A stretch of 64,000 nucleotides of DNA from a virus (Duplodnaviria > Caudoviricetes): positions 1 to 64,000 of the IMG/VR virus record IMGVR_UViG_3300019371_000256. One strand, written 5' to 3'. The notes under the pieces are model-generated. The model did no database searches. It had not been told where the DNA came from and was given only the letters and a program-made list of their open reading frames with translations. Made by a program: the position numbers and the translations under genes. Positions 16,957-63,299 of the stretch are shown in pieces. Position 1 is the first letter of the stretch. Each line of letters begins with the position of its first letter.

Positions 16957-16957
16957 C

Positions 16958-17836: not shown

Positions 17837-18045
17837 TAAAAAGATTATTTATAAAACATGATTAATATAGTTAATAGTGCTGAGTGCAAAATTAATTGAT
17901 TACCAAATAAAGATTGTAAACTTACAATGATTTTAAGCAAATCTAACCCTTTAGATAAATCGATTATTCTGGAATTAGGATGTACTGTAAAATATTTAAA
18001 ACAAGAGTTGCTATATTATAAATAATTTCATTTTAATTGAGAAAG

Positions 18046-18234
18046 TACTGTCCCGACGCTCGCATCCGTCAAAGACAGTATTAACCCCTTCCCAAAGGTT
18101 CGTTGTCGGGGTGGGGATAACAGCAGAGAAAGTCCAGGGTATCCGCCCTGGATTTTCTTGTCTTATTGTATCTCAATATTCCTCCCTGGTTGCCCGGTGC
18201 TGCTCTGACCAAGAATTTGATTGAGCTGCACTCT
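18046..18234. ncRNA. GC-rich multi-hairpin segment; candidate ncRNA or mobile-element remnant
   Basis: Stems 18046-52/18074-80, 18084-88/18108-12 and 18127-39/18146-58 within very AT-rich flanks. Confidence 0.4.
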
Positions 18235-18366
18235 TTAACTTGTATTATTTTCCATTTATAATATAATAGATACAGAATTATTCATTTATTAATATGGTGG
18301 CATAGCTTAATATAATTGTAATAATGGGAAGTTAGAGCATCAAGAGATGCGCTGGGGGATAAATGT

Positions 18367-21330: not shown

Positions 21331-21431
21331 AGCCAATTATGATAACCGTTTTATGTATATAATAAATAGATTAAGTTAAGTATTGAGATTATTGAAAGTC
21401 ATTACTTGCAGCATATACAGGGGGTAAATAC

Positions 21432-22403
21432 ATGGAAAAACGGTATCAAATTTTTGTAAGTTCGACATTTGAGGATTTAGTAGATGAGCGTAAGAGGGTC
21501 ATAGAAACTATTTTAAATTTTAATCATATTCCAGCTGGAATGGAGTTGTTTACTGCCTCTAACGATGAACAATTTGAATATATAAAAAAAATAATGCATA
21601 ATTGTGATTATTATATTCTAATAGTTGGAGGCAGATATGGAACTATAAATCCAGATAAAGGTATAAGCTACACAGAGCAAGAATATCTTTATGCCTTGGA
21701 ATTAGGTTTACCAATTTTAGCTTTTTTACATGAGACACCATATGATTTGCCATCCAAAAGAAGGGATGATGAGAATAGAATACTATTTGATGCATTTCTA
21801 AAAAAAGTTAAAACAGGTAAGATGATTAAGTATTGGTCTAATATAGATAATTTGACTTCTTCAGTTTTACTAGGATTAAATTATGAATTTAATAATAATC
21901 CTAGGTTAGGTTGGGTGCGTGGCGGAGAAAGTAATAGTGCTGAACTTTTAAAACAAATTAATGATTTGAGGTTAGAAAAAGAGACGATAGAGAAGAAGTA
22001 TATGGAAGTTAAAGAGACTCTTCATGAAAACCAACCTAAATTTGAAAATTTAGCTGAAATGTCAGAGGTGTATACTGTCAGAGGAATAGAAATGGATGAA
22101 AATGGTGATAGCAATTTTTATGAGGATGATTTTGATTTTACTTGGAATGACATTTTTAAAGCAATTGGTCCGCACCTTAATCCTTGTGTAAAAAAAGACA
22201 TATTTGAAAAAATCGTAAAGTGTAATCTTGGTTATTATGGTTTCGAAGGAATCAGAGATGAGTGTATACAAACTATTAGGATACAGTTATATGCGCAAGG
22301 TCTTATATATCAAGATACAATATCAGGTAGCTTGCATATAGGTCTGACTCAAAAGGGAGAAGTATATCTATTGCAGATTATGACTATAAAGACGCAAAAG
22401 TAA
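21432..22403 (+). CDS. DUF4062-domain protein
   Basis: KRYQIFVSSTFEDLVDER...HIPAGMELF...YILIVGGRYG...SYTEQEYLYA. Confidence 0.85.
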   Translation: MEKRYQIFVSSTFEDLVDERKRVIETILNFNHIPAGMELFTASNDEQFEYIKKIMHNCDYYILIVGGRYGTINPDKGISYTEQEYLYALELGLPILAFLHETPYDLPSKRRDDENRILFDAFLKKVKTGKMIKYWSNIDNLTSSVLLGLNYEFNNNPRLGWVRGGESNSAELLKQINDLRLEKETIEKKYMEVKETLHENQPKFENLAEMSEVYTVRGIEMDENGDSNFYEDDFDFTWNDIFKAIGPHLNPCVKKDIFEKIVKCNLGYYGFEGIRDECIQTIRIQLYAQGLIYQDTISGSLHIGLTQKGEVYLLQIMTIKTQK

Positions 22404-44629: not shown

Positions 44630-45010
44630 ATGGCAGAAAGTATTGTTACAGATATTGCAAAAGAAAAAATGCTGAAGGCAAGGGCAGGAGTTTCACCCTT
44701 ACCACCTATTGTTGGGATGGCTTTTGGGGATGGGGCTAAAAATGTTTCGGGTGGAATAATTGCTCCAACCGCAAATCAAACAGCTTTGAACAATGAATTA
44801 CTTAGAAAATCAAATGACAGTTGCAAAGAAATTACTAAATTAATTTATCGTTATTCTTGCACATTAGATGAAGGCGAATTGGCCAATAAATTTATAAATG
44901 AAATAGCCTTGTATGATTCTGATGGAGATTTGATAGCGATAAAGACTTTCTTAGATAAGGGAAAAGATTCTGATCAAGAAATGGTATTTGAGATAGATGA
45001 TACATTTTAA
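44630..45010 (+). CDS. Tail-collar-like tail protein
   Basis: MAFGDG, TALNNELLRK, INEIALYDSDGDLIAIKTF. Confidence 0.75.
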   Translation: MAESIVTDIAKEKMLKARAGVSPLPPIVGMAFGDGAKNVSGGIIAPTANQTALNNELLRKSNDSCKEITKLIYRYSCTLDEGELANKFINEIALYDSDGDLIAIKTFLDKGKDSDQEMVFEIDDTF

Positions 45011-45022
45011 AAGGAGGAGTTT

Positions 45023-45841
45023 ATGGCTGATTTTGAAATTGAAAAAGAGTATAGGGAACAACTGCGGAAATTAGAAACAACAGATCCTGCCCATGCTGAC
45101 CTATTTAATTCAACGTTTTCAACATTAATAAATAATGATGCATACCTCAACGAGCAGAATAACAAAATCAAACAACCAGAATTTGATGATTCTGGCAGCG
45201 TAGATGAAATAAAAGACTTCCCATCATTTTTATCATCTATGGTATCTAAGATGAGTATATTTAAGTTTTTTTCAGATTTGAAAGCTGGATTAAAATTTGT
45301 ATTACATACAGGGCAAATAGTCAATAACTGTGTTACGGACCGGTCAGACCTTCCAGGTTCGGCACATAATGATAAGGTTTTGATGGATAAATATTTGGCG
45401 TTAAGTAGTGATTTAAGTGAACGGCTTTTCTTTGGTGCTGGTACTGCGTTGCAAGCAAAGAACGGTACGACGTGGTACAGATTACAAATTAATCCTGATA
45501 ATTCAACAGGTGTTTTTAAGTCTATCGATAATGGTACCACATGGCCAATTTTTGAAAGATTTATAACAGAATCTGGATCAGTTAAAATAAAGAGTGGGTA
45601 CATAAACATTGCAACGACTGCTTCTTACGGCAATGAATACCAGGGATCTATGTCCATTCCATCTATCATTTCAGCTTTTAGTCTTACAGATAAAACGGTT
45701 TTGACAGTCATTTGTCGGGGAGGCAATCTTATATCAGATGGTGCAATTGTCCCAAAACATGGTTCAGACGGTTCTATATTTACACTCTCTGGTGCTGTGT
45801 CGGGTACATACAGGATGCATTTCGATATACTTTATAAATAA
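45023..45841 (+). CDS. Tail fibre / receptor-binding protein with a switchable C-terminus (currently cassette 1)
   Basis: LETTDPAHADLFN N-terminus typical of tail fibres. The recombination site encodes L127-S-S-D-L131. Confidence 0.82.
   Translation: MADFEIEKEYREQLRKLETTDPAHADLFNSTFSTLINNDAYLNEQNNKIKQPEFDDSGSVDEIKDFPSFLSSMVSKMSIFKFFSDLKAGLKFVLHTGQIVNNCVTDRSDLPGSAHNDKVLMDKYLALSSDLSERLFFGAGTALQAKNGTTWYRLQINPDNSTGVFKSIDNGTTWPIFERFITESGSVKIKSGYINIATTASYGNEYQGSMSIPSIISAFSLTDKTVLTVICRGGNLISDGAIVPKHGSDGSIFTLSGAVSGTYRMHFDILYK
45401..45415 (+). repeat. Shufflon site A TTAAGTAGTGATTTA, inside the tail-fibre gene
   Basis: 45403-45416 is the perfect reverse complement of 46097-46110. Confidence 0.88.
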
Positions 45842-45848
45842 TGATTAA

Positions 45849-46109
45849 TTAAATCCATGACCTCCACTGATTTCCCCAGCGCATACGATGTTTAAAGTCA
45901 TTATTCCAGTCAAAGAATAGCTGGATACCACTCGGACCATTATTAAATATGATGATAATTCCATCTTTCCCCGTTGGCGTTTTTGTACTTCCGTCATTTC
46001 GTATGTCAATAGTAGCAATTTGCGTCTCCCGTAAATTATCCAGAGTTATAAGTGAACCATCTCCAATGGAATAGTTATTATATGGGAGGATGCTCGTTAA
46101 ATCACTACT
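45849..46109 (-). other. Silent tail-fibre cassette 2 (86 aa, no start codon, not in the ORF track)
   Basis: Open frame from site B: SSDLTSILPYNNYSIG...QLFFDWNNDFKHRMRWGNQWRSWI*; in-frame TAA immediately upstream. Confidence 0.85.
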
Positions 46110-46112
46110 TTA
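46098..46112 (-). repeat. Shufflon site B TAAAGTAGTGATTTA
   Basis: Inverted copy of site A, in frame with cassette 2. Confidence 0.88.
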
Positions 46113-46205
46113 TTAAAAAGATGGTAATAAACAAAATATTGTAATATTTTCCTTTTAAGTCTATAATTAAAAATGGATAAATAATCTGTATAGGGGGAAT
46201 TATGT

Positions 46206-47090
46206 ATGTTTAAAAAGAAAAATACGATAGGGTTTATAATCGGAGCATTAGCAATAATTACTGTAGCAATAACTAACAACACGAATAGTTATGCAAAAAG
46301 TGATTTTGCCGTAACAACAAGGGATGAATCTATTGAATATAATGGAGTTACATATAAAAGAATTCAAGTTGATGGTGGAGATTTATCAGGTTCAAGGCAA
46401 CCTAATGTGGCGGTAGATGTTGGGTATGGGGATAGAACATATTGGGCGTTAACAAATGAGCATAGTCAGCTTGTGTATGTAATAGCTGACAAAATCACCT
46501 TGCAAGATGAAAACACAGAACAAGTTACTTCTGAGGGACGTTATTATAGTGATGAGGCAAAAGTACCTGGCACTGAAAGGTCAGACTTAGATGAAGGACA
46601 TGTCATAGCAGATAGTCTTGGTGGAGTTTCGAATGCATACAATATAACACCACAAGATAGCACTTTAAATCGCCATGGAGATCAAGCCTATATGGAGAAA
46701 GTGATTCGTGATGCAGGTGGTTGTGAACATTTCATAGCTACTATCACATATCCAGATACTTCAACTCAAATTCCGTCACATTATCATTATGAATATATAC
46801 TCAAAGGGAATGCGGTTGTAGATGATTTTGATAATATAAATCCTGACGAAGTTAATAAAGCACAAGCAGATAAACAACAAAAAGAATCAAATGTAACAAG
46901 TGGAAATAATAATTCTAGTGAATCTAGTATAAATGAACAAGAGGAACTGAAAAAGATAGATACTAATGGCAATGGTAAAGTTACAATAGCCGAAGCAAAA
47001 GCAGCTGGATACAAAATGCCAATCTATTCAACTCATTGGTTGTATAAATATATGGATGACCGAGATGGAGATGGTATGGTAGGAGAATAA
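46206..47090 (+). CDS. Secreted DNA/RNA non-specific endonuclease with C-terminal EF-hand-like motifs (moron)
   Basis: Signal-peptide-like N-terminus; DEGHVIADSLGG...NITPQDSTLN; DTNGNGKVT and DRDGDG. Confidence 0.85.
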   Translation: MFKKKNTIGFIIGALAIITVAITNNTNSYAKSDFAVTTRDESIEYNGVTYKRIQVDGGDLSGSRQPNVAVDVGYGDRTYWALTNEHSQLVYVIADKITLQDENTEQVTSEGRYYSDEAKVPGTERSDLDEGHVIADSLGGVSNAYNITPQDSTLNRHGDQAYMEKVIRDAGGCEHFIATITYPDTSTQIPSHYHYEYILKGNAVVDDFDNINPDEVNKAQADKQQKESNVTSGNNNSSESSINEQEELKKIDTNGNGKVTIAEAKAAGYKMPIYSTHWLYKYMDDRDGDGMVGE

Positions 47091-47148
47091 TAGTCATGTT
47101 AATAGGAGCCGTAAGGCTCCTGTTTTTTTATAAAGAAAGGAGTTCTTA

Positions 47149-47886
47149 ATGGAAAAAGTTAAAATAGGAGATAAGGAACTATTCTATGATATCCAAGAGA
47201 TTCTTCCCATTAATACACATGTTTTGCGTATCGTTTTTGCTAACTCACTGCCTGCAAGTTACGGAGACATTACTACGTATACAGCTGGGGGAATTGAAGG
47301 AGTTACGCTTACTGGTTACGATACAGTTTATCGTGATGAGGGCAAGACAGTTTATTTAAGCAATGATAAAAGTGTTTATATACCAGTGGAAACCTCTACC
47401 GGGCCTATGGATCCACCGGAACCACATTCCCCCACTATGAAGGAACTAAAGGCATCAAAGCTTAGGGAAATATCGGCCGCCTGTGAAAAGTCAATCTATG
47501 CAGGAGTAGATGTTAATTTAGCTGATGGAGTAATAGAACATTTTTCCCTTACTGAACACGATCAGCTCAATTTGTTCGGAAAACAAATCCAGGTGTCAGC
47601 AGGTGTAGAGAAAATAGAATACCATTCAGATGGTATGCCATGCCGATATTATAATGCTGCTGATATGCAGACTATAATTTCGGCAGCTATGTGGCATGTA
47701 TCTTACCATACTACATATTGTAATGCACTTAATATATGGATATCCGGGATTGAGCAAGCAGGGGATCTGGAAACTATTTCCTATGGGGTGGAAGTTCCCG
47801 AGGCTTACCAATCGGACGTACTTAAAGCATATTTTATACAGAAGGCTGCCATGACGGAAGGAGAAAGAGATGAAACAGCAAGCTAA
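47149..47886 (+). CDS. DUF4376-like tail-associated protein
   Basis: KASKLREISAACEKSIYAG, HFSLTEHDQLNL, YHTTYCNAL. Confidence 0.7.
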   Translation: MEKVKIGDKELFYDIQEILPINTHVLRIVFANSLPASYGDITTYTAGGIEGVTLTGYDTVYRDEGKTVYLSNDKSVYIPVETSTGPMDPPEPHSPTMKELKASKLREISAACEKSIYAGVDVNLADGVIEHFSLTEHDQLNLFGKQIQVSAGVEKIEYHSDGMPCRYYNAADMQTIISAAMWHVSYHTTYCNALNIWISGIEQAGDLETISYGVEVPEAYQSDVLKAYFIQKAAMTEGERDETAS

Positions 47887-48286
47887 ATACATATTTTTAT
47901 TAGTGTCCGGTGGATTTATGTACAGCATTATAGAAATTTTATATCGGGGGTATACCCACTGGACCATGTTTATTTTGGGCGGTTTATGTTTTATATGTCT
48001 AGGGTTAATTAATGAGTTGATTCCTTGGAGTACGCCACTCTGGAAGCAGATGCTTATTGGTATGGCTATAATTACATGCTTGGAGTTTATAACTGGGTGT
48101 ATAGTCAATATATGGCTTGGGTGGGGCATTTGGGATTACAGTAATTTGCCAGGTAATATATTTGGCCAGATTTGTCCTCAGTTCACTTTCTTATGGTTTT
48201 GGATAAGCGCTGCCGGGATAATATTAGACGATTGGCTTAGATATTGGCTTTTTGAAGAAGAACGGCCACATTATAAATTAATATAG
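47870..48286 (+). CDS. Integral membrane protein (putative ABC-transporter type IV family)
   Basis: RGYTHWTMFILGGLCF; EFITGCIVNIWLGWGIWDYS; GQICPQF. Confidence 0.8.
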   Translation: MKQQAKYIFLLVSGGFMYSIIEILYRGYTHWTMFILGGLCFICLGLINELIPWSTPLWKQMLIGMAIITCLEFITGCIVNIWLGWGIWDYSNLPGNIFGQICPQFTFLWFWISAAGIILDDWLRYWLFEEERPHYKLI

Positions 48287-48301
48287 GAGGATAAGGTTAC
48301 G

Positions 48302-48607
48302 TTGACTTTTTGGGATTATGTAAAAGAGTCTTGGCCGGGATGGGTGTGTTCAGCAGCTGTCCCGGCCATCATTTATTTATATACACAGGTTATGGCCAGC
48401 CGTAATGGCGTAAGAGCCCTTTTGAGAGCAGAAATAATAAGAGTGTATAACAAGTATCATGATGATTTAAAGTATTGTCCAATTTATGTTAAACAATCCA
48501 TGGAGGATATTTATAAACAGTATCATGCTCTGAAAGGTAATGGAGTTGGTACAAAGCTTTATGAAGAAATTATGGAATTACCAACAGAAAAAGAGGAGGA
48601 AAATTAA
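48302..48607 (+). CDS. Lysis-cassette membrane protein
   Basis: One TM segment, then GVRALLRAEII...YKQYHALKGNGVG. Confidence 0.6.
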   Translation: MTFWDYVKESWPGWVCSAAVPAIIYLYTQVMASRNGVRALLRAEIIRVYNKYHDDLKYCPIYVKQSMEDIYKQYHALKGNGVGTKLYEEIMELPTEKEEEN

Positions 48608-48811
48608 ATGAACAATGAAAAGATTTTAAAGTGGGTAAGAGCTGCAGGGGTAAGAGCAGTTAAGACAATGGCGCAGACGGCCATTGCAACCATTGGGACT
48701 ACAGCGGTAATGTCTGGGGTAGATTGGATTATGGTAGGATCAGCAACGGCACTGGCCGGGATTCTTTCTATACTTACATCGGTGGCTGGGCTACCGGAAT
48801 TAAAAGATTAA
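48608..48811 (+). CDS. Holin (r1t type)
   Basis: WVRAAGVRAVKTMAQTAIA...SILTSVAGLPE. Confidence 0.88.
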   Translation: MNNEKILKWVRAAGVRAVKTMAQTAIATIGTTAVMSGVDWIMVGSATALAGILSILTSVAGLPELKD

Positions 48812-48886
48812 TTTGTTGCGACCGTCGCAACACTATGGACCTGGGACATCCTGGGTCCTTTTTCTATTGAAAGGAAGGGGAATATC

Positions 48887-49759
48887 ATGATTAGTAATTG
48901 TGGACATGACGAAAATGGAAAATACACAGGTGGTAAAGCCGGGGATCAGACTGGTGGAGAGTACGCAGTAATTAATTGGTATAACCGTCCATGGGCCTGT
49001 GTGTTAAGGTATCCAGATATTAATGTAGGGTTAAAGATTGCGGAGATTTCTAAAGCTGCAGCAATTAATAATAACGTGGGTTATGATCAGGGACAGAGAC
49101 TTACATATTACAACTGCTTACGAGCTGTAAATTGGGATCCTGCTAAGATCATAACTCCATGTGAGGGTGACTGTAGTGCAACAACGGCAGCAAATGTGAT
49201 TGCCGCCGGAAATCTATTAGGTTTTAGTAAGTTAAAATCTATCAATCCATCAAACACTACATCGACATTGCGTAAGGCTCTTGTTGCAGTAGGATTTGAA
49301 CTTTTGACAGACAGCAAGTACCTTACAGGTGATAACTATTTGCTTCCGGGAGATATTCCACTATATGATGGACATCACGTAGCAGTTAACCTTGATTATG
49401 GATCAGAAGTTAAGCCAGCAGAAGAGAAGAAATCCGGCTGGATAAAAATAACAGATGGATGGATGTATTATAATGGTGATACCGATTTGCCGGTTCGTAA
49501 TGATTGGGTAGAGGATCAGAGCAAGTGGTACTGGTTTAACGCGGCCGGGATCATGGTCACGAATACCTGGTATCAGTATAATGCTGCATGGTATTATTTA
49601 GGACCGGATGGGGCTATGTGCCAGTCACAGCTTGTGGAGAATTCCGGGAAGATTTATGCAGTGGACACAGATGGAAAAATGGTTACAGGTGAAATTTTGT
49701 TATCTACTTTGAGCGACGGGACGCTGCAGTACAAAGGTTTAATAGGAGACGGCAAGTAA
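48887..49759 (+). CDS. Endolysin (NlpC/P60-like catalytic domain plus cell-wall-binding repeats)
   Basis: GHDENGKYTGGKAGDQTG, CEGDCSA, GHHVAVN; WYWFNAAGIM and WYYLGPDGAM repeats. Confidence 0.9.
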   Translation: MISNCGHDENGKYTGGKAGDQTGGEYAVINWYNRPWACVLRYPDINVGLKIAEISKAAAINNNVGYDQGQRLTYYNCLRAVNWDPAKIITPCEGDCSATTAANVIAAGNLLGFSKLKSINPSNTTSTLRKALVAVGFELLTDSKYLTGDNYLLPGDIPLYDGHHVAVNLDYGSEVKPAEEKKSGWIKITDGWMYYNGDTDLPVRNDWVEDQSKWYWFNAAGIMVTNTWYQYNAAWYYLGPDGAMCQSQLVENSGKIYAVDTDGKMVTGEILLSTLSDGTLQYKGLIGDGK

Positions 49760-49856
49760 TATTACTTTGAACCCAGAACCGGTCATTAACTGTAATGCGC
49801 TATGTATGTTTCAAATCATGATGGGGTGCAGTATATAGGTACATTTTAATTAATGT

Positions 49857-49883
49857 TGGCGGGCTCTTGTCCTGAGTCCGCCA
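49857..49883. terminator. Hairpin after the endolysin
   Basis: TGGCGGGCTC-N7-GAGTCCGCCA. Confidence 0.6.
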
Positions 49884-49924
49884 TTAAAAGTACTTTTCAA
49901 TTTTAGGGTCGTATGGTATTATAG

Positions 49925-50164
49925 TTAAGTAGAGTGGCAGAAAGAGAGGCCACATGAGTAGTAATAATAACTGTCTGAAAGCAATCAATTTAATTCATTT
50001 CGATGGCAAATCAATTAGTCTAAATAATGTATGTATGTCTCATACAATTTTTCAAGAAAACCAAGTTTTACAAGCAGCAATCTACGGTGATATGATAGTT
50101 ATAACTTCAGCAATGGAAGAAGAAAAAGAAAGTAATTAATTTGTATTATAGCCACTCTACTTAA
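49925..50164. repeat. Perfect 14-bp inverted repeat TTAAGTAGAGTGGC (49925-49938 / 50151-50164) bracketing the 61-aa ORF
   Basis: Direct reading of both arms. Confidence 0.85.
49954..50139 (+). CDS. Small protein, possibly SymE/AbrB-fold
   Basis: Own extended -10 (49914-49922) and RBS. Hydrophobic register ISLNNVCMSHTIFQENQVLQAAIYGDMIVIT matches the SymE pattern by eye only. Confidence 0.45.
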   Translation: MSSNNNCLKAINLIHFDGKSISLNNVCMSHTIFQENQVLQAAIYGDMIVITSAMEEEKESN

Positions 50165-50263
50165 ATTTTACTTTAATATACAAAATTGATTTTTTAAAGT
50201 AATAAGATTATAATAAAAAAACGATTTTAAACTGAATATCAATTATATAATAATCAAATTTAT

Positions 50264-50953
50264 TTGGAGGAAGTTTATATGGATAAAGAGTTAATTAATA
50301 CCGAGAATATTGATGAAATATCAATAAAAAGAATAATTGATGGTTTAACAGGTTTTATATCTGGAAGTAAGGCAGACTATGCACACTCAGCAAATAGATT
50401 ATTGAAAAGCCTATTTGCTCATGATTTTTTATTTCAGTTACAAAAAGAATGGGATAAATATGTCGATAGAGGTAATATTGACTTAGATTATAAAAAATCA
50501 AAGCCATTCTTAAATAGTTTATCTGAATTAATGGACTATCTTGATACGGATTTACCAAATGATGAGATAGCTCTAACTTTAAAAAAGTTATTCTTTATAC
50601 CAGCTTTTAAAGACTATTACAAAGAAGACAAGCTTTTAGCAATTGAATATATGAAAATAATAAGAAAGTTAACGCCAGGTGAAATGGTGGTTTTGTTTAC
50701 AGCATATAATAATGTTGGAATAAGTACAGACAGTGCTTCAAAATGGTTGGAAATAATTGCAGAGAAATCCACTCTGAAATATACAGAACTAGTAGAGCTG
50801 CATGAAAAGAAATTAATTGATTTAAATCTGATTACAAAACGTAAATATGAGGATAATAGTGGATTATGGGTTGGAAAATATTCTCGCTTAACAAGTTTGG
50901 GGTATAACTTATGTCATTTCATAAAATTGTATGATGAATTTAATGAGAGATAA
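50264..50953 (+). CDS. AT-rich hypothetical moron protein (229 aa)
   Basis: ORF with low GC; C-terminal LIDLNLI...LTSLGYNL winged-helix-like segment. Confidence 0.65.
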   Translation: MEEVYMDKELINTENIDEISIKRIIDGLTGFISGSKADYAHSANRLLKSLFAHDFLFQLQKEWDKYVDRGNIDLDYKKSKPFLNSLSELMDYLDTDLPNDEIALTLKKLFFIPAFKDYYKEDKLLAIEYMKIIRKLTPGEMVVLFTAYNNVGISTDSASKWLEIIAEKSTLKYTELVELHEKKLIDLNLITKRKYEDNSGLWVGKYSRLTSLGYNLCHFIKLYDEFNER

Positions 50954-50965
50954 AAAATTGTATTG

Positions 50966-51032
50966 AATCCTTATACTAATAATGAAATACAACTTTATTT
51001 TTTGGTGGTATTTCATTATTAGTGTAAGGATT
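50966..51032. terminator. 25-bp stem with 17-nt loop between convergent genes
   Basis: AATCCTTATACTAATAATGAAATAC pairs with GTATTTCATTATTAGTGTAAGGATT (one G-U). Confidence 0.7.
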
Positions 51033-51036
51033 TATA

Positions 51037-52053
51037 TTACGGTACATATTTTCTATGGGCTTCCTGTACGGTGGCTTTGGCAATAGCTGCATAGCACTGC
51101 TTTGTTGTGTCCAGTTGGACGTGCCCTAATTTCTCGGCCACAAGTTCCAGAGGAGCCCCCTTATTAATCATATCTGTGCCAACGGTGCGTCGGAAAACAT
51201 GAGGCGTTAATTTGACTGCAGCAAGATCATTGTCTCTATTCTTGATTCGTTTTAATATATTTCTTACTGTGCTACTACTTACACGGTTATGAGGTTTTTG
51301 ATTTGTTACAAATAAAGCCTGGTTATTATCGGTACGGCTTTTAAGATACCGTTCTAAATGAACCTTTGCTTGGCCGTTAAAATACACCTCTCTTTCCTTA
51401 CGTCCTTTTCCGTATACAATGGCTTTCATATCGGAAAAATCAACATCATTGATATTTAAGCGGCAAAGCTCAGATACCCGTATCCCAGAGGAATATAGTA
51501 AATCGCATAATGCTAATTCCATTTCATTTTTGCAGGCGCAGCGAACCTCTTCCCGCTGTTCAGCTTTAAGGGTCGGACCTATACGACGTTCTACTTTGGT
51601 TTCTTTTAGCTTTTTGGCTGGGTTATCAGGTAGCATATCCTCTTCATATAGCCAACCGAAGAAGCTCCTCATGCATATTAGCTTACTATTATATGTACGA
51701 TCTTTCCATTTTCGAAAAAGTTTTCCGTATGCAAGATAACCTTTTAGATCTGAATATGATATTTCAATAATATTTTTATTTATATAATCAAGCATATTTT
51801 GAAGATTATTTTTATAATTTGCAATACTGGCATCAGTGCATCCGTCAAGCTTCATTTGTATTAGATATTGTCTTAAATATTCTTCCGTACAATCAATTTT
51901 GGTAGATAAACCTGTTCTGGCCTCTTCTTTAATTAATTTATAATTTCCTAAATACATATATATGAGTAATTTTGTTTCGTGTATTTTTTCTGTTTTTATT
52001 ATCCCTGCTATTTCAAACTGCAATACTAAATCATTTATAACATTTTCTTCCAT
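51037..52053 (-). CDS. Tyrosine recombinase (XerD-like), putative shufflon invertase
   Basis: Catalytic set GIRVSEL, VYGKGRKER, HVFRR, LGH, TTKQCY; SAM-like N-terminus; adjacent to sites C and D. Confidence 0.92.
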   Translation of the reverse strand: MEENVINDLVLQFEIAGIIKTEKIHETKLLIYMYLGNYKLIKEEARTGLSTKIDCTEEYLRQYLIQMKLDGCTDASIANYKNNLQNMLDYINKNIIEISYSDLKGYLAYGKLFRKWKDRTYNSKLICMRSFFGWLYEEDMLPDNPAKKLKETKVERRIGPTLKAEQREEVRCACKNEMELALCDLLYSSGIRVSELCRLNINDVDFSDMKAIVYGKGRKEREVYFNGQAKVHLERYLKSRTDNNQALFVTNQKPHNRVSSSTVRNILKRIKNRDNDLAAVKLTPHVFRRTVGTDMINKGAPLELVAEKLGHVQLDTTKQCYAAIAKATVQEAHRKYVP

Positions 52054-52077
52054 GGTGCACCCCTGTAAACTTATTAC

Positions 52078-52140
52078 AGTTAGAATATAACCATTATCGT
52101 TATATTAGAGAAAAAGTTAGAATATAACACATTCCGTTAT
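52078..52140. promoter_or_regulatory. Direct repeat AGTTAGAATATAAC x2, each copy the left arm of an AATATAAC-N7-GTTAT(ATT) dyad
   Basis: Copies at 52078-52091 and 52115-52128; right arms at 52099-52106 and 52136-52140. Confidence 0.6.
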
Positions 52141-52154
52141 TCCGGGATTTTGTT

Positions 52155-52169
52155 TTAAATAGTGATTTA
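52155..52169 (+). repeat. Shufflon site C TTAAATAGTGATTTA
   Basis: 14/15 identical to site A; in frame (LNSDL) with ORF 52170. Confidence 0.88.
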
Positions 52170-52691
52170 ATGTATAAAGGTAATGCCAATGATTTAGATA
52201 CGTTAATCAATGAAGAATACACTGATAAGGTTATAACAAACAGTTATAATTACTCCTCCACGGGAGTGCCAGAAAACTCAAGCGGATATGTTATTACATA
52301 CTACAGGACACCTGCCAGCGTATTACAAAATTTATATACTTTCACAGGGAACTGTTATACAAGGCGCAGAGACATTAATACAACACCTACATGGGTAAAA
52401 CTCCCATCAAATGAAGATTTAGAAAACAAATTATCTACCAATGCTTTTTACATTACGAATATAAAGACTTTAGCTGATTTGTATTCCGCCTATGCCAGTG
52501 GTATCATATTTGTTTATAATAGTACTGGAAATGTCCCAAGTTATGGTAGTGGAATTATATTACGATGTTCAAACTCTAACTTTAAACTCTTACTTGTAGA
52601 TGATGATACTGATGCAATGTATCTATGGTCATTAACGGGTGCGGCTGGAACAGCTCTAATAATTAGTGCGAATAAAACCAAGGTTATTTAA
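52158..52691 (+). other. Silent tail-fibre cassette 3 (177 aa from N of NSDL)
   Basis: NSDL-MYKGNANDLD...VPENSSGYV...CYTRRRDINTTPTWVKL knob-like domain plus a second domain. Confidence 0.82.
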
Positions 52692-52698
52692 TGATCAT

Positions 52699-53013
52699 TT
52701 ATGCTATCATCTTCCAGGCAAGCCAGCTTAGGTATCCATAAAAATGATTTCTGTAATATACATTGTTCCTTTTGATATCAAACAGTATTTGAACTCCGTG
52801 AAAACTTACTTTGGATAAAATAGGATAAGTGTTGAATGAAAATACGAATACCGCTTCTCCTCCTGTCGCTCCAGAAATGGAAGGACCATTGGTGATATCT
52901 AAAACATACGAAAAATAAAATCCGCTGGTTATAGCATTTAAATCTAAATTCTCAGTATAGGGTGGAGAAATCATTAATTTGGGAAGTAATGTTTGTGCAC
53001 CTAAATCACTATT
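52699..53013 (-). other. Silent tail-fibre cassette 4 (104 aa)
   Basis: NSDLGAQTLLPKL continues in frame into ORF 52974 (DLNAITSGFYF...VQILFD...VYYRNHFYGYLSWLAWK); in-frame TAA immediately upstream. Confidence 0.85.
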
Positions 53014-53016
53014 TTA
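53002..53016 (-). repeat. Shufflon site D TAAAATAGTGATTTA
   Basis: 53002-53014 is the perfect reverse complement of 52157-52169. Confidence 0.88.
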
Positions 53017-53122: not shown

Positions 53123-54067
53123 ATGAGTAATCTGTTTGTTTTTGGTAATGGTTTTGATTTGGCTCATGGTTTTGATACAAGCTATGATGATTTTAAAATA
53201 TGGCTTAGTGAAAAATATGATGAATCATCAGATTCGTATGAGTCGTTTCCTAAATACAACACTAATTATAAAAGGTTTGAATCATTTAGTTTTGAAAGCA
53301 TGTCTTATTTTTTCTATAATCTTATTTACAATGTAGTTGGTAGTGATTGGAGACAATTTGAAGCAGCATTGTCAAAACTTGATTGGGTTTCAATAATCGA
53401 AAATGAATGTTATGGCAGTAATTATAAAGAACGAATGTTCCAAGCTGAGGATATAGCTGTACAAATAAGAGATTTTGCTCACGTTTTAAAAGATAGTCTA
53501 TTTAAAAGTTGGGCTGAGGAAATTGACATTTCACACCCTAAGTCAATTTCAGAAGAACTTATAGGATTGATTGATAATGAACATGATTATTTCTTGAATT
53601 TCAATTATACTGATACACTTGAAAAACACTATAATATCAATAATGTTTGCCATATACACGGACAATCTTCTAAACATGATAGTTTGATCGTGGGACATTC
53701 GGGAAAAGATAAAATAGAGTTTGATAGCTATTTGACTATTACTTATTCTTACATTCGACAGATTTATGAAGATTATCGAAAAGATACTAAAAACATATAT
53801 AAAAAGCACATGGATTTTTTTAATAAATTATATAATAATAATATTACTAATATTTATATACACGGTTTTTCATTTTCAGATGTTGATATGTTTTACTTAA
53901 AAAAAATCGCACTAAAACTAGATACTTCTGTGGTACGTATTCATCTACATAGCTATTTAGAGGAGGACTTTGAAGGCTTCAAAAAGAAACTCATTAGATG
54001 TGGATTCCATAATATTAACATTATACAGTTTAGATTATCTGATATCAATGATGTATGTGAGATATGA
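53123..54067 (+). CDS. abiH: AbiH-family abortive infection protein
   Basis: LFVFGNGFDLAHGFDTSYDDF, FLNFNYTDTLE, HIHG, IYIHGFSFSDVDMFY. Confidence 0.85.
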   Translation: MSNLFVFGNGFDLAHGFDTSYDDFKIWLSEKYDESSDSYESFPKYNTNYKRFESFSFESMSYFFYNLIYNVVGSDWRQFEAALSKLDWVSIIENECYGSNYKERMFQAEDIAVQIRDFAHVLKDSLFKSWAEEIDISHPKSISEELIGLIDNEHDYFLNFNYTDTLEKHYNINNVCHIHGQSSKHDSLIVGHSGKDKIEFDSYLTITYSYIRQIYEDYRKDTKNIYKKHMDFFNKLYNNNITNIYIHGFSFSDVDMFYLKKIALKLDTSVVRIHLHSYLEEDFEGFKKKLIRCGFHNINIIQFRLSDINDVCEI

Positions 54068-54582: not shown

Positions 54583-54785
54583 TGACACCCAAATGGCACC
54601 CATATGTTGAAAATGCTATTGATATTGTACGGAATGAGCGGTTAAATTGAACGTATTATAGCATATGTGTACGCTAACGATTACCGGTCAATATTGAGTT
54701 TGAATAAAAAATTTGAGCCCGCAAAGCCTTATAAAATAAGGATTTGTGGGCTCTCTTTATGTCGTTTGGTACTATTTTGGTATTA
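54583..54785. other. Candidate attR junction: arm-type repeats, guaA-like core and hairpin
   Basis: 11-bp-period repeats at 54583/54594 and 54766/54777; ATTGAGTTTGAATAA (IEFE*) at 54693-54707; hairpin 54715-54753. Confidence 0.5.
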
Positions 54786-55791: not shown

Positions 55792-55859
55792 GACCGGATT
55801 TTAGGACAGGTAATAAGAGAAAATTATGATGAGATTACTATATATTGGAGGATACAACG

Positions 55860-57335
55860 TTGATAACAGGCGAAGTGAGAAATAAGATAGATAAAATATG
55901 GACAGACATGTGGGCAGGAGGAGTAACGAATCCTTTGACAGTAATTGAACAGATTACATATCTGATGTTTATTCGCTCTTTGGATGAAAAAGAATTAGAG
56001 AATGAAAGCTTTGAAGCACTGGCAAGAGAAAAGATGGAAAAAATCTTTCCACAAGATGAAAATGGTCAATCCATGCGATGGAGCAGATTCAAAGATAAAG
56101 ACGCCAGAGAAATATTTGAAATTATTGGACAAAAGGTATTTCCATTTATTAAAAGTTTGAATGGTAATAATGCATCCGCATTCTCTAGATATATGGAAAA
56201 TGCGATGTTTATGATTCCTACACCACAAATTTTGCAGAAGATCATTACTGGATTGGAAGATTTGTACGAGCATGATTTGACAGGGCTTGATATGCAAGGT
56301 GATCTCTACGAATATATGCTGGACAAACTTGCTACCGCGGGGCAAAATGGTCAGTTTCGTACACCAAAGCATATAAGAGAACTGATGGTGCAATTGGTAA
56401 ATCCAACACCAGATGATACCATCTGTGATCCGGCTTGTGGAACAGCGGGATTCTTAGTATCGGCATCTGAATATATCAGAAAGAACTTTGAAGGGACTAT
56501 GACAAGTGAGCAATGGGAGCATTTTGACAAAGGAGCATTTTCGGGATTTGATACGGACACAACAATGCTTCGTATCTCTGCAATGAATCTGATGCTTCAT
56601 TCCATTAGTAATCCTGATATTGATTACAAAGATAGTGTATCAAAACAGAATGAGATTATTTCAAAATATACGGTGTGCCTTGCAAATCCACCATTTGCAG
56701 GAACTGTAGATTCAGAGAGTATTAATGACAATCTGAAAGCAATCTGTAGTACCAAAAAGACAGAGCTTCTATTTGTGGCATTATTCCTTCGTATGCTAAA
56801 AAAGGGTGGAAGATGTGCATGTATCGTACCAGATGGAGTTTTATTTGGTAATTCAAAAGCTCATAAAGAGTTAAGAAGAGAACTTGTTGAAAATCAACAT
56901 TTACAAGCAATCATATCTATGCCGAGTGGAGTATTTAAGCCATATGCAGGGGTATCAACCGCAGTTTTGGTATTTACAAAGACAGATGATGGTGGAACGG
57001 ATAAAGTCTGGTTCTATGATATGAAAGCGGATGGAAAGAGTCTGGACGATAAACGTCAGGATACGGATAAAAATGATATTCCTGATATTTTAGAACGCTG
57101 GAATCATTTAGAATTAGAAACGGACAGAGTAAAAACAGAACAATCCTTTTTTGTAACAAAGAAGGAGATTGAGGAAAATGAATATGATCTGTCGATTAAT
57201 AAGTATAAAGAAGTAGTCTATGAAAAGGTAGAGTACGATTCATCAGAAGTGATTATGGAACGAATTGATAAAATTGATGAAGAAATTGTTGTACTGAAAG
57301 CGGAATTGAAAACATTATTAAATTTAGATTTGTAG
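55860..57335 (+). CDS. hsdM: Type I R-M methyltransferase subunit
   Basis: GQFRTPKHI, DPACGTAGF, ANPPF (N6-adenine MTase), FKPYAGVST. Confidence 0.95.
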   Translation: MITGEVRNKIDKIWTDMWAGGVTNPLTVIEQITYLMFIRSLDEKELENESFEALAREKMEKIFPQDENGQSMRWSRFKDKDAREIFEIIGQKVFPFIKSLNGNNASAFSRYMENAMFMIPTPQILQKIITGLEDLYEHDLTGLDMQGDLYEYMLDKLATAGQNGQFRTPKHIRELMVQLVNPTPDDTICDPACGTAGFLVSASEYIRKNFEGTMTSEQWEHFDKGAFSGFDTDTTMLRISAMNLMLHSISNPDIDYKDSVSKQNEIISKYTVCLANPPFAGTVDSESINDNLKAICSTKKTELLFVALFLRMLKKGGRCACIVPDGVLFGNSKAHKELRRELVENQHLQAIISMPSGVFKPYAGVSTAVLVFTKTDDGGTDKVWFYDMKADGKSLDDKRQDTDKNDIPDILERWNHLELETDRVKTEQSFFVTKKEIEENEYDLSINKYKEVVYEKVEYDSSEVIMERIDKIDEEIVVLKAELKTLLNLDL

Positions 57336-57337
57336 GG

Positions 57338-58492
57338 ATGATTGATATGGAGATTAAAAAACTTAAAGATATAAATGAATATTCTAGCCAAAGTGTAAAT
57401 CCTTCAAAATCGCCAGATATTGTATTTGAAGTTTATAGTGTACCAAGTCATGCAGACAACAAACCAGAGTATCTTCGCGGTGATGAAATTGGTTCAACAA
57501 AAGTAGTTATTGAAGAAGGTGATATTTTGCTATGTAAAATAAATCCAAGGATTAATAGAGTCTGGGTTGTAGATAAATCGTCTGAACATTTGAGTGTTGC
57601 TTCATCTGAGTGGATAGTAGTTAGAAGTAAAGAAAATAATCCAGAGTATTTGGCGTGGTATTTTAGATCTGATGGATTTAAAACTCGTATGAATAGTGGT
57701 TTGACTGGAATTGGTGGATCATTAACACGAGCACAGCCAAAGCGAGTAGCAGATTATCCAGTTCCAATTAGAGAAAGAAAAGAACAAGATGAAATAGTAT
57801 TAGTTTTAAATAAAGTAAATAAAATAATAGATAGCAGAAAAGAACAGTTAGAACAGATGGATAACCTAATCAAATCCCGATTTGTCGAGATGTTTGGGGA
57901 TCCTTTAAGTAATCCAATGGGCTGGGAAGAAGTTGTTATTACAGAGCTGTGCGAGAAAATATGCGGTGGTGGTACACCTTCAAAATCTCATCCAGAGTAT
58001 TTCGTGGGGCGTATTCCTTGGGTGTCACCGAAAGATATGAAATCTATGGTTATTAGAGATAGTCAAGATCATATAACTGAAGAGGCCATTAAGAATAGCT
58101 CAACGAAGATTATTCCAGAAAACTCGGTACTTATGGTAATAAGGAGTGGTATTTTAAAACATACACTTCCTGTTGCTATTAATGCAGTGCCTGTGACTAT
58201 TAACCAAGATATGAAAGCTTTTATTCCAGGGAAAAAAATACTTACAACATTTTTGATGAACTACTTTAAAGCGATAGAACCAGATGTATTAAGCGGTGTA
58301 AGAGGAGTAACGGCTGATAATATCGATTTCAAAGATTTTCAAAAAAGACTGGTAATTTTACCACCAATTGAAATTCAGAAGCAATTTGCCAACTTCGTCC
58401 AACAAGTCAACAAATTGAAAATTGAAGTACAGAAATCATTGGATGAAGCGCAGGTATTGTTTGATTCGTTGATGCAAGAGTATTTTGAGTGA
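57338..58492 (+). CDS. hsdS: Type I R-M specificity subunit
   Basis: Two TRDs with conserved spacers (LIKSRFVEMFGDP...NPMGWE; LPPIEIQKQFA...LFDSLMQEYF). Confidence 0.93.
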   Translation: MIDMEIKKLKDINEYSSQSVNPSKSPDIVFEVYSVPSHADNKPEYLRGDEIGSTKVVIEEGDILLCKINPRINRVWVVDKSSEHLSVASSEWIVVRSKENNPEYLAWYFRSDGFKTRMNSGLTGIGGSLTRAQPKRVADYPVPIRERKEQDEIVLVLNKVNKIIDSRKEQLEQMDNLIKSRFVEMFGDPLSNPMGWEEVVITELCEKICGGGTPSKSHPEYFVGRIPWVSPKDMKSMVIRDSQDHITEEAIKNSSTKIIPENSVLMVIRSGILKHTLPVAINAVPVTINQDMKAFIPGKKILTTFLMNYFKAIEPDVLSGVRGVTADNIDFKDFQKRLVILPPIEIQKQFANFVQQVNKLKIEVQKSLDEAQVLFDSLMQEYFE

Positions 58493-58555
58493 TAAGATAA
58501 GGAAAGCTATTGCCATGACAAATGAATATGAAGAACAGAATGCATATAAAAAAGC

Positions 58556-59920
58556 ATGAAATTGTTTGTACGATTTTGTAAAGATATGAATATCACAACT
58601 AAGGAGCAACTTTCAAACTTTACTTTCGAAGAAATTCCTTCTGAATATAAATATAAATATAAATATGGAGCCTCTGATGAAATCAGAGCTTCTGATGATC
58701 CTGATAATACACAAATAATAAATGCTATTTATATAATTTTATGGGGAGAATTTTTTGATATAAGAGATAAGAAAGATGTTGGTTCTTAGTCTGATAGTAA
58801 AAAAATAGAAGGTAGTCAGTCATCATACAGAGGCGACACAATGAATAGTTTTTGTTCTATGTTTGGAAGTGATGATACAGGATGGAATAGAATGAAGCAT
58901 ATTCTAGGTGTGGAAATCGATAATGACTGGTCTGATATAATAAAATTTAGAAAAATTTATCATACATTAGGAAATTTTTTACTTATTCCAAATAGAAAAA
59001 ATGTAAATAGAGTAAAAGGTACCTCTGGCAGACTAACAGACAGTTTTGAGACACTTTTATCAAATGCATATATGTACTATAATGAAAAAGAAAATGGAAC
59101 AAATAAGCTTATTATGTGTGGTTATAGAAAGGTTTTTGAAGAAAATATAGAATACAAGAATACATATAATGAAGATTTTTTGTTTAAATTAAAATATTTT
59201 ATTTGCAAGATTATTATTATAATGAAGGAAAGCCAACAGTCAAGTTTAAATTTAGTTTCAGAAGGGAAAAAAGGCTTAGCTGATTATGTATCTACAAATT
59301 TGAATACTGATGAATATTATACACGAAGTCATTTGCAAAAATTGGATATCATACAGACGGTTGGTTCGGCTTCTTGGTTAGGCATAATTAATGACAAAGA
59401 TTTATTTCAGGAAAGCTTGGATTGGTTTCGAGGATATATAAATTTTATTTGTGAAAAGATAGGATATGAGTTGCTTTACCAAATGATCGACAATTGTAGA
59501 AGTATAAATGAAAATAAAGATTCACAATTAGAAGCGTCATTGTGTTATGGAACATGTATGTATATTTGTTCATTTATTGAAAAAATATTAAAAATAATAT
59601 ACATAGAACTAAAAAGAGAAATAGAATATATTCCAATTGAAAATATAACTTTAGGGGAATTGCTATCAGACGGGAATTCATTGTATGCGGAAATGTTAGG
59701 AGAATATCAATTAAAGCATTTAAGATATTTTCTATTGACAGACGGCGATAAAAAAATTGGTACAAATTATCGTAATTCACTGGCACATTATAGTTCAATT
59801 ACTTCTGAGAATATTAATATGTTTCTTGTTGGAAAACTAATGTTTCTTTTTACAAATATAATAACATCATTTTTTCATTACTTTTTTATGAAACAAAGTG
59901 AAGAAAATATAGATAATTAG
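58556..59920 (+). pseudogene. Nonsense-interrupted gene (in-frame TAG at 58787-58789) with a DUF4209/HEPN-like C-terminus
   Basis: ORFs 58556 and 58841 share a frame across a single TAG (…VGS*SDSKK…YRGDTMNSF). C-terminus TLGELL…IGTNYRNSLAH. Confidence 0.6.
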
Positions 59921-59930
59921 GGGAGGATAT

Positions 59931-62900
59931 ATGTCAAACTTCGAATTCTTAACATCAAAAACAGAATATGAGCTTTTTGCAGTAGCGTGCGTTGAGGCGG
60001 AGAAGGTCTTGACATCATCACCTGCCATGAGTGCAGTAGGAGCTAGAAAAGCATTAGAACTTGCTGTGAAATGGGTATATTCCGCTGATAACTCAATTTC
60101 TATCCCGTACAAAGATAACTTACAATCATTGATTCATGAACCAAGTTTTCGTTTTGCCTTGGATAGTAAGACATGGGGCAAGATGCCATTTATCATTAAA
60201 TTAGGTAATTTGTCAGTACATACGGATAAGAAGGTGTCAAAAAGTGACGCTGTTTTATCATTACAAGGTTTGTTTGAATTTGTAGAGTGGATTGATTACT
60301 GTTACGGAAATGATTATCAGGAACGTAACTTTGATGAAAAACTGATTCCAGGTGAAAAAGTCGCTGTTGATGTATCAAAAATCAAAGAGCAGGAGAGTTT
60401 ACTTTCTGAAAAGGAAAGTGAAATCAAAGCCTTAAGAGAGAAAATTGAGGCGATGTCTGCTACCTATACTGCTGAAAAAGGGCAGCATAAAGAAGAAAGA
60501 ACTTTTACTGCGAAAGATTTATCGGAGTTTAAGACGAGAAAAAGATACATTGATGTAGATTTAAAATTGTTAGGTTGGGATTTTGACCATGATGTAAAAG
60601 AAGAATTTGAAGTACAAAATATGGATGGAAAATCAGGTCAGATGTGATATGCTGACTATGTTTTGTTTGGCAAAGACGGTCTTCCATTGGCGATTATAGA
60701 AGCAAAGAGGACAAGCAAAGACCCGAATATCGGAAGGCAGCAGGTTTTGCTTTATGCCAAGTCTTTAGAAGAGCGTTATGGACGCCGTCCTATGATGTTT
60801 ACCACGAATGGGTTTGAAACCTATTTCTGGGATGATGAAAGCTATCCTCAGAGAAAAGTCAGCAGTATTTTTTCCAAAAATGATTTGCAGAAGTTGATGA
60901 ATCGAAGACAAGAGAGAAAAGATTTATCAACCATTCGCATAGATGATAAGATTACCGATCGCTATTATCAGAAAGAAGCGATCAGAGCAGTATGTGACAG
61001 TTTGGTGCAGGGGCATAGAAAAAATCTTCTCGTGATGGCAACTGGTACAGGCAAGACCAGAACCGCTTCCAGTTTGACAGATGTATTGTCAAGAGGGGGC
61101 TATGTTACCAACGTTTTATTTCTTGCCGACAGAACGGCATTAGTAAAACAGGCAAAAGATGATTTTAAAAATTATCTTCCAGATATGAGCCTTTGTAATT
61201 TGCTGTCCAATAAGGAGGATAAGAATGCAAGAATCATTTTTTCTACCTATCCAACTATGTTAAATGTCATTGATTCGGAAAAGACAGAGGATGGACAGCG
61301 ATTATTTTCTCCATCCCATTTTGATCTGATCATAGTAGATGAAGCACATAGAAGTATCTTTAAGAAATATCGTACCATTTTTGAATACTTTGATTCAATT
61401 GTTGTAGGATTAACTGCTACGCCAAAAACAGATGTCGATAGAAATACCTATGATTTTTTTGAAATGGAACATGGGGTTCCGACCTATGCATATGACTATG
61501 AAACTGCTGTGAATCATGATTATGTGCTGGTGCCATATTTTAACATTGAAACATCAACGAAATTCTTAGAGGAAGGAATTTCATACGAAGAGTTGGATGA
61601 AAAAGATAAAGAACGTTACGAAGATGATTTCGGTGATGATGAAGGAAATATGCCAGAATTTGTGCCTTCACCTACCATGAATAAATTTGTATTTAACGAA
61701 AAGACAGTGGATTTAGTGTTGCAGGATTTGATGGAAAATGGAATCAAGGTTGAGGGCGGAGATCGAATTGGAAAAACAATCATTTTTGCTCAGAACAAGA
61801 CTCATGCTGAATTTATTTTAGAACGATTCAATAAATTATATCCAAAGCTGAAAGGTGGATTTGCAAAGCGCATTACTTGCGAAGATACCTACGCCCAGTC
61901 TGTCATTGATGAATTCAAGATTGCGAATAAGCCACCATATATTGCAGTTTCTGTCGATATGATGGATACCGGTATCGATGTACCAGAAGTAGTCAATCTT
62001 GTATTCTTTAAGAAAGTGCGCTCAAAGACAAAGTTCTGGCAGATGATAGGACGTGGAACCAGACTGTGCAAAGACCAGACTTTTGTTGACAGACAGGATG
62101 GAGAGTATACAGATAAAAAGAGATTTTATATTTTTGATTACTGTGGAAATTTTGAGTATTTCCGTGAAAATAAAGAAGGTATTGAAGTAAAAGATACAGA
62201 AAGTTTGAGCGAAAAGAGTTTTAGCAAAAGAGTCCGATTGATACAAAATCTTCAATCATCAGATTTCTTAGGAACGGAATACCAGAACTGGAGAAGTGAG
62301 CTTGTAAGTACTGTGCTACAGCAAGTACAGTCACTCAACAAAGAACTGGTTGCTGTACACATGCAACTTCGTCATGTGGAAAAATTCGAAAAGCAAGAAG
62401 CATTTACTTGTATCTCAGAACAGGATTATCATGATTTGTCCAGGCATGTAGCACCATTGGTAACGATGGATGATAAAGATGAGTATGCAAAGCGATTTGA
62501 TAATCTGATGTACGGCTTGATGATTGCTCAGATGGAGATGTTACCAGGATTTAAGAAAGCGAAAAATCAGGTCTACACATTGATGGGAGCATTGGAACAA
62601 AAAGCAATTATTCCTAAGATTAAAGAAAAACTTTCTTTGATTCAGACGGTAACAACAGATGAGTTCTGGGCTTCTGGTGATATTTTGCTTTTTGAAAAGA
62701 TTCGAGAGGAATTAAGAGATTTGATTAAACTTACAGTGGATGAGGGCACTGGTAAACGCCCGATTATGACAAGTCTTGCAGATCCTATTCTATCTAGAAA
62801 AGAAGGCGATATATTAGATGCAGCATATGATTTTGAAGATTACCGGTTAAAAGTGAATCGATACATAGAACAACATAAAGATCATATTGCAATCTGGAAG

Positions 62901-63299
62901 CTTCGAAATAATGTAAAACTGGAATCGGGAGACTATCAGGCACTCGAAAGCATCTTTACAAAAGAACTGGGCGATGAAGAAGATTACAAACGAGAGTTCG
63001 GAGATACACCATTTGGTCTTCTTATCCGTAAGATAGCAAAGCTTGAGCATGAAGCTGCGATGAAAGCATTTTCTAAGTTTATCAATGATGAATCATTGAA
63101 CCAACAGCAGATTGTTTTTGTGAAAAAGATTGTGGATTATGTGGAGCAGAATGGATACATAGAAAATATAACGGAACTGATGAAACCGCCGTTTGATAAA
63201 CCAATGAGCTTTGTGAAGCTGTTTGATAGTAAGAGGCAGGCTGAGATTGTGAAGTTGGTGAATGAGATTAAGGAAAATGCTGTGGAAGTGGCGGGGTAA
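59931..63299 (+). pseudogene. hsdR: Type I restriction subunit (EcoAI/EcoEI-like) with an in-frame TGA at 60645-60647
   Basis: …GKSGQM*YADYVLFGKDGLPLAIIEAKR continues in frame; MATGTGKT, DEAH and SVDMMDTGID helicase motifs intact. Confidence 0.92.

Follow-up and report, generated by a model that had tools for sequence, protein, structure and literature searches.

Convergent tail-fibre cassettes are inverted in phages Mu and P1 and in p15B by the serine invertases Gin, Cin and Min, respectively, which work with an enhancer and Fis; Min forms a multi-segment shufflon. In plasmid R64, the sfx sites reportedly consist of a conserved centre and one conserved arm, with the other arm being variable. 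The nearest published system to the one described here is the Rin shufflon, known from prophages of Bifidobacterium (such as Bb423phi1) and of Eggerthella lenta, in which Rc, the Rv cassettes and rin are contiguous in the genomes of Actinobacteria siphophages, and for which variant arrangements between prophage and virion sequences were found (PMC6109161; PMC8778435). Here we describe a candidate tail-fibre tip shufflon in a stretch of 64,000 nucleotides (IMG/VR virus record IMGVR_UViG_3300019371_000256, positions 1 to 64,000; hereafter the window), which is part of contig C5 of a bacterial genome of 4.53 Mb. The host is a gut-type Firmicute, and the whole system, consisting of two cassette pairs and a gene for a tyrosine recombinase, is located inside a prophage of about 58 kb.

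Our reading of this locus, to which we assign a probability of roughly 0.8, is that an Xer-like enzyme recombines any pair of four 15-bp sites (A to D) and that these sites make up a tail-fibre tip shufflon of two invertible cassette pairs. Judged from the sequence comparisons given below, it is very probable that the phage can exchange the tip by which it recognises its host. Local inversions between A and B or between C and D would flip one pair and choose between its two tips, and recombination of A with D or of B with C would flip a span of 6-7.6 kb carrying the lysis genes and the recombinase gene. Two such long-range steps would carry a pair from the silent to the expression locus. In this way, 126 constant codons could be fused in frame to any of the four tips, giving products of 272, 213, 304 or 231 amino acids (aa), and the exchange of tips would presumably change receptor recognition. 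Three points are inferred: catalysis by this particular enzyme, the occurrence and rate of switching in this lysogen, and an effect of the tips on the host range.

The sequence-only reading of this DNA had listed four copies of a 15-mer. The degenerate pattern TWAARTAGTGATTTA matches exactly four times in the window, against an expectation of 0.00 from dinucleotide shuffles, and all four matches lie where that reading had placed them. They are also the only copies in the 4.53-Mb genome, and a search of genome_contigs with a DNA pattern gave no match. The coding context that had been claimed could be reproduced as well. All copies are read in a single frame, as leucine or a stop, then serine or asparagine, then SDL, and each copy opens a C-terminal frame of its own. 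Only site A has an upstream start: its open frame comprises 130 codons including the start, compared with 0 codons for B, 9 codons without a start for C and 20 codons ending in TAA for D, while B is likewise preceded by TAA. The predicted lengths of the four products are obtained as 126 + 1 + 145, 86, 177 or 104. Translation of the silent cassettes on their own was considered and rejected, because no start or ribosome-binding site is present and TAA precedes B and D. Sixteen sites from six loci have T.AA.TAGTGATTTA in common, and their flanks are not conserved. The anatomy of the site is (W)AA(R)T-AGTG-ATTTA, in which the centre AGTG and the right, cassette-side arm ATTTA are invariant across these sites and the outer (left) arm is variable at two of its five positions. 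The cores of all four window sites share 10 identical bp.

Relatives were collected via the fibre protein, the DNA just before the site, the recombinase and cassette C. The fibre protein search returned two proteins whose constant part is 93-97% identical and whose ends differ. The constant part is 95-96.5% identical to that of L028, L030 and L067 up to the core, where the homology ends. Its conserved domain, PEFDDSG...FVLHTGQIVNNCVTD, is common to 575 proteins, and a search of 400 sampled genomes of the family at E 1e-25 did not recover the constant part. In L028, an orthologue of cassette A with 87.5% identity over 464 nt occupies the remote '+' site next to the recombinase, and no relative of this cassette was present in IMG/VR. 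Cassette B matches the C-terminal tip of P0003, a full-length fibre, at 44% identity (E 1e-23). The last 93 aa of cassette C are 73-81% identical to short tips on constant parts in L029, L059 and L060, to which this C-terminal half is joined at SSDL. The tip carried by the constant part in L030, L031, L067, L068 and L069 is 97.8% identical to cassette D over 325 nt. On these grounds, all four cassettes can be regarded as genuine fibre ends. A Pfam search of the four tips gave no match, and an AlphaFold2 model of the constant part with tip D (L030, 36-row alignment) was too poor to be used, with a mean predicted local distance difference test score (pLDDT) of 46.9 and a predicted template modelling score (pTM) of 0.22.

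The points at which homology between the window and its relatives is lost and regained coincide exactly with the cores (homologous stretches 40001-45416/45422, 46098 onward, and 51032-52169), and homology to L030/L067 resumes precisely at 46098 in site B. It had been claimed that the two separated pairs constitute one system, and this claim gained support, as orthologues of window cassettes occupy the other locus in sister prophages. L030/L067 have tip D, which is silent in the window, at the expressed position, and L028 has tip A, which is expressed in the window, in its remote locus. The remote pair is intact and free of stops in every sister phage. Related prophages checked for the same site with a different cassette order do carry it (L028, L029, L062, L067, L071 and L087).

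The strongest evidence in the sequence comparison comes from one cassette pair, C2'/N4, which is 97-99.5% identical throughout and occurs in four contexts, with all breakpoints inside TAGTGATTTA; it was found joined to all four site flanks (A to D correspond to s1 to s4). At the expression locus of L029, the order is constant part-s1-C2'/N4-s2, followed by ORF127, DUF4376 and holin. At the remote locus of L071 and L072, it is recombinase-s3-C2'/N4 (inverted)-s4, followed by a helix-turn-helix (HTH)/attR region. L062 reads recombinase-ORF258-s3-N4-C2'-s1-reversed constant part; on the recombinase side, it matches L067 at 99.9% identity over 2988 nt, as far as the s3 core. Such an order would be the isomer expected from an inversion of the middle via one site of each locus, and the proposed long-range switching would pass through isomers of this kind, with inverted lysis and recombinase genes. 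An excised circle was rejected as the origin of L062, because either possible circle would give different joints and would lack the constant part. The L062 isomer and the relocated pair of L071 are 98.7-99.9% identical to their partners; therefore, the middle inversion and the relocation of the pair are recent events. In both L067 and L062, a 258-aa membrane-like open reading frame (ORF) is inserted between the recombinase gene and s3.

In the fourth context, L087, constant part-s1-C2'/N4 is joined at the core to an outer flank of site D and the start of the AbiH gene, both closely matching the window, and the middle and one pair are missing. This arrangement implies that the lysis module, the recombinase gene and one pair were lost by direct-site recombination, probably leaving a locked, lysis-defective form of the prophage. 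In the proposed system, direct-site events could delete the middle. The coordinates of this joint and of the features in and near the window are collected in Table 1.

Table 1. Coordinates of the sites, cassettes and surrounding features (window positions unless another locus is named)
Feature	Position	Strand	Description
Prophage integrase	3.4 kb left of window		456 aa with Arm-DNA-bind_4; beside guaA 3' end (attL), followed by CI-like repressors
Baseplate_J gene	from 42548		upstream of fibre genes
Mu gp48-like gene	from 43701		after Baseplate_J, before fibre genes
Proximal fibre protein, separate ORF	44630..45010	+	tail-collar fibre N-terminal domain; PF12571 3e-7, phrog_1780 2e-20
Constant N-terminal part of distal fibre protein	45023..45400	+	126 codons
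Site A (s1)	45401..45415	+	TTAAGTAGTGATTTA, read LSSDL, in frame with ATG at 45023
Cassette A, tip now expressed	45416..45841	+	145 codons, product 272 aa
A/B junction gap	45842..45848		7 bp between convergent stops; degenerate motif TAA-TGATTAA-TTA
Cassette B, silent	45849..46097	-	86 codons including SSDL in site; predicted product 213 aa
Site B (s2)	46098..46112	-	TAAAGTAGTGATTTA, read stop-SSDL (in-frame TAA first)
Middle segment M	46113..52154		from site B to site C
Nuclease promoter-like site	46139-46167		strong, TTGTAA-17-TATAAT
Nuclease, candidate moron, secreted NS-type	46206-47090		right after site B; own promoter-like site and terminator
Nuclease terminator	47101-47124
DUF4376 protein	47149-47886
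Holin-like genes	47870-48811
Endolysin	48887-49759		ELLD/choline-binding
ORF without assigned function	50264-50953
28-nt hairpin	50966-51032		inside middle segment, beside recombinase gene
Armless Xer-like tyrosine recombinase, putative invertase	51037..52053	-	338 aa; PF00589 8e-33 and SAM-like N-terminal domains
Site C (s3)	52155..52169	+	TTAAATAGTGATTTA, read LNSDL
Cassette C, silent	52170..52691	+	177 codons; predicted product 304 aa; two domains
Decayed site-like stretch	52407-52421		TCAAATGAAGATTTA, SNEDL, 11/15 to core; between the two domains of cassette C
C/D junction palindrome	52689..52701		TAATGATCATTTA, between stops of C and D
Cassette D, silent	52699..53001	-	104 codons including NSDL in site; predicted product 231 aa
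Site D (s4)	53002..53016	-	TAAAATAGTGATTTA, read stop-NSDL (in-frame TAA first)
AbiH-family abortive-infection gene	53123-54067		PF14253 3e-43; directly outside site D, within prophage
attR core	54693..54707	+	15-nt exact match to the very 3' end of guaA, in a broader imperfect match
L087 joint	L087:1987-2761		ENA ERZ28645178 scaffold_3687

A complete tyrosine recombinase gene had been noticed next to C and D, and its completeness was confirmed; 101 bp separate its start from site C. The encoded protein possesses only the SAM-like and catalytic domains, the arm-binding domain being absent, and the catalytic residues R, K, H-x-x-R, H and Y are intact and align with those of XerD and XerA. Its best NCBIfam matches are XerA (185 bits against a cut-off of 220), XerC (166.5 against 335) and XerD (152.6 against 330), all below the cut-off, and no Rci model is among them; the cut-offs of the XerC/XerD dimer-resolvase equivalogs are thus not reached. 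The possibility that the 338-aa gene encodes the prophage integrase was rejected, since an arm-type integrase at attL and both att sites were found. The arm-type integrase at guaA is the prophage's own, which makes the 338-aa enzyme a second recombinase.

Enzymes with 56-63% identity keep the layout of two pairs and a recombinase gene, and their sites keep the arms and have a changed centre, AGCA in L052/L053 and GGCG in L051. The middle of L052 is only about 1.7 kb and its layout nearly contiguous, so the long middle of the window can be seen as one variation on a shared plan. In L063-L065, whose phage backbone is unrelated, a 72% identical enzyme is encoded ahead of the terminase gene. Two inverted ACAAATAGTGATTT sites, which have the same AAATAGTGATTT core, lie 6.5 kb away from the enzyme gene, on either side of convergent NSDL cassettes, and it is in these cassettes that otherwise near-identical phages differ. 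Based on the patterns in L051-L053 and L063-L065, the enzyme family and the site type appear to travel together and to act at a distance. In L063:17237-18436, L064:8093-8963 and L065:7712-8582, the site is preceded by a 99-aa ORF whose in-frame stop, TAA, is one codon away from it. Among the loci of 61-70% identical recombinases, megablast revealed no inversions, and most of these loci do not carry this site type.

The stretch between the two domains of cassette C resembles a decayed site, and cassette N8 of L067 has a similar internal HSDL with TAGTGATTT. The sequence of these cassettes suggests that they grow by fusion at former sites. The junctions between convergent cassettes, which are 4-9 bp apart, show a further pattern, as the gap is mostly TAAATGATCATTTA or a near variant. 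The junction motif, TAAAT-GATC-ATTTA, has the same arms as the crossover site and a palindromic GATC centre. Stop codons account for part of it only. AATGATCATT occurs just once in the window. With at most one mismatch, the palindrome is present at cassette junctions of the window, L028 (twice), L030, L059, L052 (twice), L053 and L067, and elsewhere in these loci one copy was found in about 180 kb. Homology of single cassettes ends at the far side of the junction. The pairings are A/B and C/D here, and D'/N5, A'/N3, C2/N4 and C2/N3 elsewhere. A second, orthogonal class of sites at the junctions is a reasonable hypothesis on these sequence patterns. Going further, a single recombinase may serve two site classes sharing TAAAT/ATTTA, with directional AGTG sites at cassette starts inverting segments and palindromic GATC sites at the junctions reassorting single cassettes, and with lysis-misoriented isomers (as in L062) and direct-site deletion (as in L087) that locks and disarms the prophage. 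This wider scheme is tentative and we rate it as somewhat doubtful; reassortment of single cassettes at GATC sites would explain the differences in pairing between sister phages.

Several observations weigh against a shufflon acting on all four sites. The assembly of this genome shows a single arrangement, and the alternative joints, which are on short metagenome contigs of sister phages, could represent rare evolutionary events rather than frequent switching. Once the middle is inverted, the lysis genes run against the late operon, an arrangement that looks costly, and L087 implies that directly repeated sites recombine too, with deletion of the lysis genes and the recombinase gene. The differing pairings among phages are not producible by inversions at four sites alone, and many recombinases with 61-73% identity are found in other contexts. 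Part of this would also suit two independent local switches, in which A/B flips the expressed end, C/D is separate or a relict that reaches the fibre by rare accidents, and two tips are used in practice. Such a scheme fits the single assembly state and avoids the 7.6-kb inversion that would misorient the lysis genes, and the differing pairings point to other exchange routes. We nevertheless consider it unlikely, in view of the 10 identical bp in all four cores, the maintenance of a stop-free remote pair in every sister phage, and the close identity of the L062 isomer and the relocated pair of L071 to their partners, which indicates recent exchange between the loci.

It is also conceivable that no dedicated site-specific system exists, that xSDL is a natural fibre linker at which homologous exchange between phages takes place, and that the recombinase serves dimer resolution or a second integration function. 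P0003-like fibres do carry internal SDL-like linkers, the enzyme is most like Xer proteins, and the 72% identical recombinases upstream of terminase genes are far from fibres. However, those terminase-proximal homologues too have an inverted pair with the same core, and the centre of the site changes together with the enzyme. In addition, the exact nucleotide core is kept by cassettes that are start-less, inverted and preceded by TAA beside non-coding flanks, and an identity of 10-15 bp is short for RecA-type exchange, which makes this explanation very improbable. Lower still do we place the chance that the joints of L062 and L087 are chimeric metagenome assemblies formed via a short repeat. 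Both are short contigs (3.8 and 2.8 kb, respectively) from complex samples, but the repeat of 15-17 bp is far below the k-mer size inferred from the 'k141' in the name of L062 (L087 is a scaffold for which k is not recorded), independent samples and assemblers agree on the breakpoints at the core, and the relocated cassettes of L028, L067 and L071 are on long contigs of 10-55 kb. The four-site shufflon is therefore preferred for the interpretation of this locus.

With attL at guaA and attR at the right of the cassettes (Table 1), both pairs and the recombinase gene are placed inside the prophage. Because the Baseplate_J, Mu gp48-like and tail-collar protein genes precede it, the 272-aa ORF can be taken as the distal portion of a fibre of the myovirus type. 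When the 8.6-kb region was compared with GenBank phages by megablast, no match was obtained. Nuclease and lysis genes had been noted between the two pairs, which are about 6 kb apart, and the nuclease, holin and endolysin genes are indeed located there, in a middle segment that also holds the recombinase gene and its upstream region. The nuclease gene resembles a moron sitting at the border of the invertible segment; L030 and L067 carry it, L028 lacks it, and L029 has a 127-aa ORF in its place. The hairpin beside the recombinase gene is probably a bidirectional terminator within the invertible middle segment. The slot of the AbiH gene contains other genes in L028 and is empty in L071. A low-GC block (25-33% GC) with defence-like genes is located inside the prophage at 15550-22403, encoding an AAA_21/AAA_15 ATPase (15550-16956), a 987-aa SIR2_2 protein (18367-21330) and a DUF4062 protein (21432-22403). 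Just outside attR, a type I restriction-modification system (hsdM, hsdS, hsdR) is present at 55845-63299, with two additional ORFs between hsdS and hsdR, at 58841-59920 (no Pfam match) and 59931-60647 (DUF4145).

Until now, the tyrosine-recombinase fibre shufflons described have all been contiguous Rin loci from prophages of Actinobacteria, and a literature search found no paper describing one in Firmicutes. The present system would extend the principle to a widespread phage group that appears to infect Lachnospiraceae-like gut Firmicutes. If sites kilobases apart act together, annotators should seek silent cassettes far from the fibre gene, and host-range switching would be coupled to the orientation, and even the loss, of the lysis module. 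The recombinase and its 15-bp site, with natural variants of the centre, are candidate orthogonal recombination tools, and the system may also offer a route to predicting alternative host ranges of gut prophages.

The system resembles those of Gin, Cin and Min in that fibre C-termini would be switched by inversion of convergent cassettes. It differs from them in the enzyme, as a small serine recombinase is located beside the invertible segment in those systems and none was found in this prophage, where the search for PF00239 gave matches on other contigs only, in open frames of 472-569 aa of the large type. The sequence-only reading had pointed to R64 Rci. This likeness stands as an analogy, given the asymmetric sites, the use of a tyrosine recombinase and a constant N-terminus with alternative C-termini; among the NCBIfam models, the enzyme here scores as Xer-like and not as Rci. 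Furthermore, R64 varies a plasmid pilus adhesin, pilV, through contiguous segments, in contrast to the phage fibre described here, and L087 suggests that direct-site deletion is not fully barred in our system. The likeness to the Rin shufflon, with the enzymes compared by description, is closer. Both systems have a phage-encoded armless XerD-like tyrosine recombinase apart from an arm-type integrase. In both, every start-less C-terminal cassette of the fibre or receptor-binding protein opens with a short asymmetric site, which is the 11-bp rix in Rin and is 15 bp long in the present system. Both also have alternative arrangements with breakpoints at the sites, which for the present system are found in sister phages only. 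The differences from Rin are an unrelated site sequence, a Firmicute host, a myovirus-like phage and a layout that is not contiguous but consists of two convergent pairs 6 kb apart, with the lysis module and the recombinase gene inside the span that would recombine.

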